A stretch of DNA of 33,086 nt, taken from contig JAUPVO010000007.1 of assembly GCA_030916975.1 (NCBI GenBank), positions 1-33,086 on the forward strand, written 5' to 3'. The position numbers were made by a program, and so were the translations under genes. Source of the stretch: Patescibacteria group bacterium. Its GTDB lineage: Bacteria > Patescibacteriota > Minisyncoccia > Phycocordibacterales > UBA5272. The notes under the pieces were generated by a model. That model was not told the DNA's origin. It worked only from the letters and a program-made list of their open reading frames with translations, and did no database searches. Shown here in pieces: positions 22,405 to 23,895 of this stretch (its first letter is position 1; the number at the start of each line of letters is the position of its first letter).

Positions 22405-22439
22405 GATATTGATCTTTAATCAAACCTTGGAGTATCGTC

Positions 22440-23150
22440 ATGAAAAACCGCATTATTGTTGCTATGGACGTTCCTAGCCGTAAAGATGCGATTTCCTTAG
22501 CCAAAAAGCTCGACCCGAGCCTTTGTCGACTCAAAGTCGGTATGGAGCTCTTCACGGCAGCGGGACCTGCAGTCGTTGAGGATTTACGAAACCTTGGTTT
22601 CGATATATTCCTCGACCTCAAGTACCATGACATTCCTGACACTGTGGCCGGAGCAATCCGTTCTGCAGCTGGGCTCGGTGTCTGGATGGCAAACATCCAC
22701 TGCCTCGGTGGGCGCAAGATTATGGAAGCGGCTGCAAATGCCGTCCCTCGCGAAGTGAGGCTACTCATCATCGGTGTCACCATACTGACAAGCATGAAGG
22801 TGACTGATCTTCGTGAAGTGGGTATCGACGATGACGAATCGTCTGATCCCACTTTCCCGATGGTCCGCCTTGCTCAACTGGCAAAGCAATCTGGCCTTGA
22901 TGGCGTCGTCTGTTCTGGACAGGAAGCTGCAGCCATCCGCAAGGCAACGGACGACTCGTTCACTCTAGTCACACCTGGTATCCGTCTTCCCGACGGAAAT
23001 AAGAATGACCAAGCACGCATCGTCACGCCGGAAATGGCTATCCAATCGGGTGCAAGCCATCTCGTCGTCGGCCGTCCTATCACTGGGGCAGCTGACCCGG
23101 TTGCTGCTTTACACGAATTCAACAACCGGATCGCATCCGTCGCTAACTGA
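22440..23150 (+). CDS. pyrF: Orotidine-5'-phosphate decarboxylase
   Basis: 236 aa. IVAMDV...[10 protein letters not shown]...[16 protein letters not shown]...[12 protein letters not shown] closely parallels enterobacterial PyrF as I remember it. G+C is far above the flanks. Confidence 0.95.
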
Positions 23151-23164
23151 AACAAGGAGCCTCT

Positions 23165-23833
23165 ATGCAACTCAATCCTCAAAACCCTGCCGAAACCTTC
23201 GTGGCTTACGCCCTCGGGATCGGTGCTCTCGAACTGTTACCGGAAGGTCGGGCATTGAAGAGTGGGCGAATTTCCCCGTATTTCTTCAATTCCGGCCTCT
23301 TCAATACTGGTGACACTCTGAGCAATCTTGCTCGCGCCTACGCTGCCGCCGCTTCGGAATTCACTCCCGACGTCATCTTTGGTCCGGCTTACAAGGGCAT
23401 CCCCCTTGCAACAGCCGTCGCTCAAGAAATCGGTGGCAACATCGGCTATTCCTTCAATCGCAAGGAAGCGAAGGATCATGGCGAAGGCGGCATCATCGTC
23501 GGTGCTCAACTGAGCGGCAAAAAAGTACTCATCGTTGATGACGTGATGACGACGGGGACATCTTCTGGTGAAGCTGTCGAAATCATCCGTGCCAACGGTG
23601 GCATTCCGATTGCTACCGTGATTGCATTTGACCGGCAAGAATGCGGCAAAGATGGAGTGCTATCGGCTGTGCAGGAGTTCGAGAAAACATACGGCATCAC
23701 CGTACGTGCTGCAGCGGCGCTCTCGGACCTGATTTCTCTCCTCAAGCGCACTCCAGCCGAGAGCTCAGATGACCAGCTTAATGAAATACTCGAAAAGATT
23801 TTCACATACCGCAAGGAATATGGTGTGAATTAA
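23165..23833 (+). CDS. pyrE: Orotate phosphoribosyltransferase
   Basis: 222 aa with SD AAGGAG upstream. [41 protein letters not shown] and the PRPP loop [13 protein letters not shown] are near-colinear with E. coli PyrE. Confidence 0.95.
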
Positions 23834-23842
23834 ACTAATTAC

Positions 23843-23895
23843 AAAGCCCCTAATACCGATCGTCGTGATGACGGATGGTGGGGGCTTTTTCTTTT
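23843..23895 (+). terminator. Intrinsic terminator after pyrE
   Basis: AAAGCCCC ... GGGGCTTTTTCTTTT with an inner CGTC-gtgat-GACG helix. Confidence 0.6.

Follow-up and report, generated by a model that had tools for sequence, protein, structure and literature searches.

The stretch of DNA analysed here (hereafter the window: 33,086 nt, positions 1 to 33,086 of the forward strand of contig JAUPVO010000007.1, Patescibacteria assembly GCA_030916975.1) carries two adjacent genes of pyrimidine synthesis, pyrF (22440–23150, + strand, 236 amino acids), encoding orotidine-5'-phosphate decarboxylase, and pyrE (23165–23833, + strand, 222 amino acids), encoding orotate phosphoribosyltransferase (OPRTase), each assigned by Pfam, NCBIfam and solved structures. 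PyrE converts orotate and phosphoribosyl pyrophosphate (PRPP) to orotidine monophosphate (OMP), which PyrF decarboxylates to uridine monophosphate (UMP). PyrF matches Pfam OMPdecase (PF00215; 5.8e-58, 196.8 bits against a cutoff of 27) and scores 286.5 bits for the NCBIfam equivalog NF001273, whose cutoff is 193; over residues 4–229 it is colinear with solved OMP decarboxylases, among which 3tr2, 3ldv and 1eix are the top PDB matches. Likewise, PyrE matches Pfam Pribosyltran (PF00156; 1e-14) and NCBIfam TIGR00336 (168.5 bits against a cutoff of 106.8) and is colinear with solved structures, with 2pry, 1lh0 and 1oro as top PDB matches; these six structures are of gammaproteobacterial and yeast enzymes. 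An alignment of 35 sequences shows no variation at PyrF residues D10, K32, K61 and D64 and hardly any at D59, and the catalytic motif D59-L-K61-Y-H-D64 (DxKxxD), which aligns with the solved structures, lies inside a motif at residue 57 quoted in a preliminary description of this DNA. The two PyrE motifs quoted there, namely the flexible-loop motif at residue 98 and the PRPP-binding loop motif at residue 121, are also present, and, like FGPAYKGIP at residue 72, they have aligned counterparts in yeast OPRTase and in E. coli PyrE. The two proteins are thus colinear over their full length, and share catalytic motifs, with E. coli-type PyrF (NF001273; 1eix) and E. coli/yeast-type PyrE (TIGR00336; 1oro, 1lh0, 2pry), yet are only 48–57% identical to any named proteobacterial sequence listed; identity to the E. 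coli K-12 enzymes is 48% for PyrF and 50% for PyrE (over residues 31–221).

A Shine-Dalgarno sequence precedes each gene, GGAG (22429–22432, + strand, read from the sequence) lying 7 nt before the pyrF ATG, and AAGGAG (23154–23159, + strand) lying in the 14-nt spacer between pyrF and pyrE. The ratio of nonsynonymous to synonymous divergence (dN/dS) between the copies of this gene pair described below is 0.09–0.30 overall (pyrF 0.09–0.30, pyrE 0.12–0.15), which argues for purifying selection on both genes. Since the family cutoffs are passed, the catalytic residues are kept, selection is purifying and each gene has its own Shine-Dalgarno sequence, the block is predicted to be a functional two-gene pyrF-pyrE operon. 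Such an arrangement differs from that of E. coli K-12, in which pyrF and pyrE are about 2.5 Mb apart. Among open reading frames (ORFs) of at least 100 amino acids the window contains no other pyr gene, as had been described earlier, and no recognisable transporter.

The cassette formed by these genes differs markedly in composition from the DNA around it. Its GC content (as a fraction) is 0.536 in pyrF and 0.528 in pyrE, and that of the remainder of the window is about 0.35. Sliding intervals of 300 nt give values of 0.523–0.560 within 22450–23799, as compared with 0.243 at 22150–22449 and 0.270 at 23950–24249, and intervals of 1 kb along the 33-kb sequence all fall between 0.30 and 0.40 (maximum 0.404) save those overlapping 22.0–24.0 kb, which reach 0.548. 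A two-boundary maximum-likelihood fit delimits a GC-rich segment at 22461–23777 (0.545 inside versus 0.362 outside, log-likelihood ratio 68.5), its left boundary lying about 20 nt past the pyrF ATG, while on the right a GC-rich terminator stem carries the signal on to 23888. GC at third codon positions (GC3) is 0.532 for pyrF and 0.552 for pyrE against 0.285±0.039 (maximum 0.407) for 26 host genes, corresponding to z = 6.4 and 6.9, respectively. The sharp GC-rich block in AT-rich DNA, and the onset of the shift some 20 nt from the pyrF start, are therefore as the preliminary description had them. The tetranucleotide deviation that it had proposed to measure is also pronounced, the distance between cassette and rest of the window being 0.721 against 0.273±0.038 for 144 host segments of the same size (z = 11.9), and the GC-normalised tetranucleotide signature of the cassette correlates with that of the host at 0.15, compared with 0.60±0.09 for host segments. 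Synonymous codon choice is inverted relative to the host: for arginine, AGA falls from 0.59 in the host to 0.00 in the cassette and CGC rises from 0.05 to 0.42, and for isoleucine ATA falls from 0.48 to 0.08 and ATC rises from 0.14 to 0.61. The list of ORFs of at least 100 amino acids further includes four on the opposite strand of the cassette (22370–22852, 22874–23182, 23237–23638 and 23506–23814, − strand, 102–160 amino acids), which had been regarded as spurious products of high GC. Stop codons interrupt three of the four in the homologous frame of two related copies (on the contigs L009 and L010 introduced below), and codon-order shuffles of the cassette already yield 2.15±0.94 antisense stretches of such length, so that these ORFs are indeed best read as by-products of composition.

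Related copies of the genes occur on a number of other contigs, here given L numbers, and their contexts are informative. The closest, on L009 (87% amino-acid identity for PyrF and 90% for PyrE; 86.9% nucleotide identity over 22423–23827 by blastn), forms part of a pyrF-pyrE-pyrD-like-pyrC block (198–3842 of that contig) of 0.53–0.58 GC, the remaining contig having 0.34–0.48; summarised, the copy has 0.56 GC against about 0.36–0.47 in its contig. Its pyrC passes TIGR00856 (373.7 bits), the family of E. coli-type dimeric dihydroorotase, and its pyrD-like gene encodes a divergent DHO_dh protein below all NCBIfam cutoffs. As the closest relative has this four-gene block, the donor lineage probably possessed a compact pyr operon; in the window no pyrD or pyrC remnant is found downstream of pyrE. 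A stand-alone capability leading from orotate to UMP, as the preliminary description conceived it, may exist here; in the closest relative the pair is accompanied by the pyrD-like gene and pyrC. On L010 (PyrF 73%, PyrE 81%; 79.1% nucleotide identity over 22428–23827, blastn) a pyrF-pyrE pair of 0.54 GC adjoins rbfA/infB in a contig of 0.42, and on L008 pyrF occurs alone (82% amino-acid identity; 81.3% nucleotide identity over 22438–23156, blastn). A short JGI contig of about 0.43 GC (L111) encodes a PyrF of 80% identity, and L115 (0.40) encodes a PyrE of 82% identity (GC 0.51) together with a pyrF of a different, host-like type. The L111 pyrF (1936–2393) falls into two reading frames, with the break at about 2289, reflecting either a pseudogene or an assembly error. 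Close copies sit in hosts of 0.23–0.45 GC and each is GC-rich against its own contig, and their neighbourhoods have nothing in common with the window or with one another.

Comparison of the copies delimits the transferred unit to the base. Nucleotide homology to L009 and L010 begins at 22423–22428, at the pyrF ribosome-binding site (RBS), and stops at 23827, at the pyrE stop, while L008 shares pyrF only; the shared unit as defined by blastn and alignment (22423–23827, + strand) comprises the RBS, pyrF, the 14-nt spacer with the pyrE RBS, and pyrE. The pyrF RBS, retained as CTGGAG, TTGGAG and TAGGAG in L009, L010 and L008, respectively, is the first conserved element of the cassette, and L009 and L010 have also kept the spacer AACTGAAACAAGGAGC. 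No alignment between copies is possible for the leaders that precede the RBS, and the flanks of the window show no homology to any other cassette locus.

The L008 copy deserves particular attention because of the genetic code of its host. This pyrF, of 0.50 GC, is sharply bounded within a contig of 0.233 GC (ENA ERZ28653834 scaffold_652) whose host genes contain 3–35 in-frame TGA codons each, and whose RecA reads correctly only when UGA is translated as glycine (code 25: ...FGKGSIMKLGD...EIYGPESSGKTT...), which indicates a Gracilibacteria- or Absconditabacteria-type bacterium of the candidate phyla radiation (CPR). In 11 host genes of this contig 148 of 199 glycine codons (74%) are TGA and 51 are GGN, whereas all 18 glycine codons of the pyrF are GGN and none is UGA (P = 2e-11 under host usage). 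Since no UGA is found among these 18 codons, the copy appears to have been made in an organism using the standard code and to have arrived too recently to gain any UGA. Not every homolog is compositionally foreign. That of L012 (68%) has a GC3 of 0.245 in a host of 0.33 GC, those of L013 (62% and 75%) are close in composition to their 0.476 host, and the PyrE gene of L114 (74%; a Candidatus Paceibacterota metagenome-assembled genome (MAG) of 0.48 GC) has a GC3 of 0.668, inside the native range of 0.50–0.73. High GC is thus not intrinsic to pyrF or pyrE, since the L012 and L114 copies look native, and in the close copies it appears to reflect that they came only recently from a source with a GC content near 55%. 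In L115 (4436–6098) and L114 (10001–11574) the same PyrE lineage stands beside a distant PyrF (34% identity or no detectable match to the PyrF of the window), so that the transfer histories of pyrE and pyrF are partly separate. In L114 (9435–14042) pyrE and then the distant-type pyrF, in the opposite order, lie between tsaE and polA, two genes that overlap by 4 nt in L108 (1882–4730), and the two loci might represent an occupied-versus-empty pair in another CPR lineage, provided that the genomes are close relatives.

An abrupt change of composition at gene boundaries might in principle reflect an assembly chimera or a binning contamination that joined a GC-rich fragment to a CPR contig, an explanation to which we attach virtually no weight. 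The exact PyrF protein occurs on 14 contigs of different sequencing runs and in one NCBI MAG (GCA_030917185.1), and seven of these are 99.74–100% identical to the window across one or both junctions. Both junctions are spanned by L001 (covering 21533–33021) and by L004 (covering 21477–24170), and L002 (covering 12440–23298) crosses the left junction and includes 10 kb of host sequence. Because the same junctions were assembled independently at this level of identity, in at least seven runs or projects, the cassette is not a chimera, and the analogous islands of L008, L009 and L010 are likewise internal to their contigs. It is also very improbable that the gene pair is ancestral and vertically inherited, with its high GC kept by selection on mRNA structure, translation or amino-acid content. 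Such a view would accommodate the similarly high GC (0.50–0.57) of the closest relatives and the part played by Ala/Gly-rich proteins in raising GC at first and second codon positions (the glycine, alanine, arginine and proline content is 0.32 versus 0.18–0.24 in the host), yet the strongest deviations are those of GC3 and of synonymous codon choice, the L012 and L013 homologs tolerate host-like composition, the close copies lie in unrelated neighbourhoods behind non-homologous leaders, the copy in the code-25 host is devoid of UGA codons, and synonymous divergence (dS) of the cassette is well below that of host genes (values below). The preliminary description had reasoned that closest homologs of the same lineage and of similar GC would make this an ancestral gene of unusual composition. 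Homologs of just this kind are what was found, but they do not imply ancestry, since they are themselves GC-rich islands in hosts of 0.23–0.45 GC, one of which uses code 25. A third possibility, that the cassette travels as an auxiliary metabolic gene on a phage, a plasmid, an integron or a mobile element of another kind, is unlikely, though suggested by the minimal, promoterless, ORF-bounded unit found in many contexts, by a tRNA gene 850 bp away (tRNA-Val(TAC), 21514–21589, + strand, by ARAGORN and Rfam) and by an IS481-like transposase at the equivalent variable region of the host relative L109. In its promoterless form and its recurrence in many contexts the unit resembles an integron gene cassette, which is also confined closely to the coding sequence and expressed from local upstream DNA. 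Integron cassettes, in contrast, have an attC (an imperfect palindrome with R/L core sites), an intI gene and an array, none of which is found here: no intI-like gene is present in the window, no integrase, transposase, attC-like site or att-like direct repeat flanks the cassette, and its 3' element, an ordinary intrinsic terminator, has no conserved counterpart in L009 or L010. The 3' end of the tRNA gene is not repeated downstream, and a host gene lies between it and the cassette, so that nothing points to its use as an integration site. Searches of mobile elements point the same way, IMG/VR viral contigs giving at most 47% identity for PyrF (full length) and at most 50% for PyrE, INPHARED phages no match, and PLSDB plasmids short motif-level matches only.

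The donor question was addressed by homology and phylogeny, as had been proposed at the outset, and here the alternative to be weighed is that a Beta- or Gammaproteobacterium, such as the host of the CPR cell itself, passed on the cassette directly and recently. Both enzymes are of E. coli structural type, Gallionellaceae and Nitrosomonadales-type sequences stand closest to the PyrF clade among the named ones in the tree, and the GC content would be compatible with such a source. This is nonetheless an improbable origin, with a small probability left for an unsampled proteobacterial donor within the PyrF clade. All eight organism-named PyrE relatives of 60–74% identity are Patescibacteria. For PyrF, relatives of 62–87% identity are metagenomic and the named matches of 57–60% belong to Gallionella, a gammaproteobacterium and a Gracilibacterium. 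Among the 598 matches listed from the species genomes of GTDB, the highest PyrF identity is 57%, and the best 80 of these 598 are all from Beta- or Gammaproteobacteria at 48–57%. In a neighbour-joining tree of PyrF (89 sequences, 229 columns, 200 bootstraps) the window protein falls into a clade of about 47 sequences, comprising every copy with a CPR-like context and a named Gracilibacteria sequence, which excludes all named Proteobacteria sampled in 193 of 200 bootstraps. A codon-degenerate DNA probe for the clade peptide AGAIRSAxxLxVWM retrieved four loci from JGI metagenomes, one being the close relative on L111 (80%) and three belonging to high-GC organisms at 47–51%. Furthermore, pyrF and pyrE are not adjacent in Proteobacteria. 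The earlier designation of the two proteins as 'proteobacterial-type' therefore holds for the type of enzyme, as the E. coli identities and PDB matches indicate, but not for a sampled proteobacterial source, and the donor search has separated the clade from named Proteobacteria while pinpointing no donor. What the data point to is a standard-code donor lineage with a GC content near 55%, distinct from the sampled Proteobacteria; a GC-richer bacterium from the CPR gene pool, or one associated with that pool, is the likelier source.

Taken together, the pyrF-pyrE operon was very probably acquired horizontally by this Patescibacteria genome. The timing of the acquisition can be approached through relatives of the host, found via a VWA protein encoded in the window (L105, L107, L108 and L109; the four amino-acid identities are 85, 81, 78 and 70%, the last of them that of L109). 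All four keep a p127-AAA_5-gap-VWA module and differ on the cassette side, where L107 has a window gene (orf151, described below) directly beside VWA and then the contig end, L109 has p144R, an IS481-like transposase fragment and the contig end, and L105 and L108 have unrelated genes. No pyrF or pyrE was found in about 81 kb from five loci of host relatives. By the Nei-Gojobori method, which is rough where base composition differs, dS between the window and L009 cassettes is 0.37–0.48, against 0.83–2.6 or saturation for host genes and their nearest sampled relatives, so that the common ancestor of the cassette copies would be more recent than that of the host and its nearest sampled relatives. 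The only flanking family comparable between the window and L008 is a pseudouridine synthase of about 30% identity (orthology uncertain), versus 82% for PyrF. The relatively recent horizontal acquisition proposed in the preliminary description is thus supported by composition, by the contexts of the copies and by a cassette dS lower than that of the host.

Several observations weigh against this interpretation, besides the roughness of the dS estimate. No true empty site was recovered, synteny to the left of VWA being broken in the four relatives, two of whose contigs end early, and the insertion site would be better described as a variable region than as a clean empty site; a metagenome scan with an alignment of the p144 family, to which the flanking genes belong, gave no matches. 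Every strain of the species that was sampled carries the cassette, with zero substitutions inside it, and 'recent' can only be understood in a relative sense. Support inside the PyrF clade is weak (35–152 of 200 bootstraps, in a neighbour-joining tree on 229 columns), every close copy that can be placed in context is itself an island, and the borders of the cassette offer no integrase, transposase, att-like direct repeat or attC-like site as a trace of the vehicle.

The acquisition may be envisaged as follows. The minimal moved unit would have consisted of the pyrF RBS, pyrF, the 14-nt spacer with the pyrE RBS, and pyrE, originating in a standard-code organism of about 55% GC whose PyrF clade is distinct from the sampled Proteobacteria. 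Entry may have taken place by DNA uptake and illegitimate recombination, as suggested solely by the lack of mobility genes, and later than the split from the sampled host relatives. In this genome the cassette lies within a variable region, flanked by the old inverted paralogues p144L and p144R, where it would be expressed from local AT-rich upstream DNA, with transcription ending at its own strong terminator, and where it could convert scavenged orotate to UMP. The same gene lineage has probably entered several other low-GC genomes independently, at times as pyrF alone and at times with a pyrD-like gene and pyrC. A broader proposal, tentative and at present doubtful, is that of a recurrently exchanged, promoterless UMP module (pyrF-pyrE, single genes, or the pair extended by pyrD-like and pyrC genes) that moves among Patescibacteria and across genetic codes 11 and 25 without recognisable mobile machinery, presumably by uptake and illegitimate recombination, captures local promoters, and lets nucleotide-auxotrophic episymbionts make UMP from the orotate of their hosts.

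CPR bacteria are regarded as relying on other cells for their nucleotides, and how such metabolic gaps are refilled is an open question. De novo synthesis of nucleotides is generally missing from them (PMC8407418, PMC7304191). Horizontal gene transfer is frequent in Patescibacteria and takes place mostly between them, including nucleotide genes such as thyA (PMC12455944, Gios et al. 2025). Islands of this kind are therefore already described, and the cassette shares with them (PMC12455944, PMC7304191) its outlier status in GC, tetranucleotide and codon usage within a streamlined CPR genome, exchange partners that are apparently mostly Patescibacteria, and the gain of a function in nucleotide metabolism, as with thyA (PMC12455944). 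None of PMC12455944, PMC7304191 (Jaffe et al. 2020) and PMC8407418 mentions pyrE, pyrF or orotate. The window pyrF-pyrE is thus a new and unusually well-resolved case, extending known islands in that the unit is resolved to the base and is seen in at least five independent contexts, a code-25 host among them. It would represent a clean import of two enzymes leading from orotate to UMP, from a lineage imported repeatedly into very different small genomes, and leads to the testable prediction that scavenged orotate, and not finished nucleotides, sustains some CPR bacteria. Concomitantly, the absence of UGA-Gly codons offers a natural marker by which transfers into recoded genomes may be detected and dated.

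Upstream of the transferred unit, and outside it, lies an AT-rich leader and promoter region (22108–22422, + strand, about 0.24 GC) between p144L and the cassette, whose host-like composition had been pointed out before (GC 0.243) and which is not homologous to any leader at the other cassette loci. The sole + strand promoter-like site within it (22164–22191, 9/12) overlaps a perfect-consensus divergent promoter of p144L (22196–22169), and a promoter consensus scan performs at chance level (10 sites versus 8.7±2.7). The leader also contains the perfect 9-bp hairpin, a 22-bp palindrome, seen in the preliminary description (22383–22404, + strand, arms TTCAAAAGA-ATTC-TCTTTTGAA). It has a folding energy (dG) of -9.6 kcal/mol (z -3.3, matched by 1 of 200 shuffles), lies 36 nt upstream of the pyrF start, and is unique in the window even when up to 3 mismatches are allowed. 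As no U-tract follows it, the hairpin is not an intrinsic terminator. A stable leader hairpin recalls the regulation of pyr genes by the enterobacterial uridine triphosphate (UTP)-sensitive pyrE/pyrBI attenuators and the PyrR attenuators (RF00515), but pyrimidine regulation by this leader is not supported, since the hairpin lacks a U-tract, neither hairpin nor leader matches a PyrR site or any other Rfam family, and the leader is local and not common to the other copies. A full-length but sub-threshold match to the PyrR binding site (RF00515) was found elsewhere in the window (28301–28423, + strand; 32.2 bits against a gathering threshold of 54; E 0.032 in a local 1.3-kb search), 4.5 kb from the pyr genes and between minus-strand genes, where it is probably due to chance. 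Downstream, the operon ends in an intrinsic terminator (23843–23895, + strand), consisting of a GC-rich stem (23843–23888) and UUCUUUU, with a dG of -24.5 kcal/mol (z -4.1; none of 200 shuffles folds equally well), unlike the terminator common to L009 and L010.

The flanking genes p144L, p144R and orf151 belong to the host. The left neighbour p144L (21673–22107, − strand, no Pfam or NCBIfam family) is transcribed away from the cassette, and its inverted paralogue p144R (25194–25628, + strand), a native host gene, lies on the other side. Both proteins have 144 amino acids and are 41% identical, and the p144R orthologue of L109, which adjoins VWA, is 93% identical, compared with only 70% for the VWA protein of that contig. 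The inverted p144 units (21630–22207 and 25034–25673), each with a near-consensus sigma70-like promoter, a gene and a hairpin terminator, bracket the cassette and are the only long inverted repeats around it; they were considered as possible insertion scars, an idea rejected because they are old paralogues of 41% identity. Beside the p144R orthologue of L109, at the end of its 272-kb contig, an N-terminal helix-turn-helix fragment resembling an IS481/IS3-type transposase (12698–13057) fits the notion of a plasticity hotspot in this lineage. Between the cassette and p144R lies orf151 (24477–24932, + strand, GC 0.388), a native host gene and not part of the transfer, whose L107 orthologue beside VWA is 92% identical. 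The AT-rich orf92 (23923–24201), a putative small membrane protein, accounts for all variation between the window and the NCBI MAG strain (L004), in that all 7 differences along 2694 nt fall within 92 nt (24050–24141) and lead to 5 amino-acid changes, so that it is either not a real gene or a fast-evolving one.

The wider window encodes proteins resembling those of type IV secretion systems (PrgI, VirB6/TrbL-like), UvrD, an M23/LysM peptidase, a ComM-type Mg-chelatase, RecO, an RluA-type pseudouridine synthase and a pair of MoxR/CobS-like AAA_5 and CobT-like VWA proteins. The organism-named homologs of the latter VWA protein are all from CPR bacteria (Falkowbacteria, Magasanikbacteria, Woesebacteria, Gottesmanbacteria and Paceibacterota), which identifies the host, as judged by this marker, as a Patescibacterium. 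The secretion-like cluster is situated at the left end of the window (1562–4983) and consists of a PrgI-family protein (1562–1969) and a 771-amino-acid protein (2668–4983) with a weak, sub-threshold VirB6/TrbL match. Between the CobT-like VWA and MoxR/CobS-like AAA_5 genes a 1.1-kb gap (27706–28820) contains no ORF longer than 51 amino acids. Its core of about 190 nt (approximately 27990–28175, − strand), of up to 0.61 GC, is 81–90% identical in nucleotides in all four host relatives, exceeding the conservation of the flanking proteins. RNAalifold predicts four tandem hairpins in this core, with three pairs showing compensatory changes and no Rfam family matching, making it a candidate for an unannotated structured RNA.

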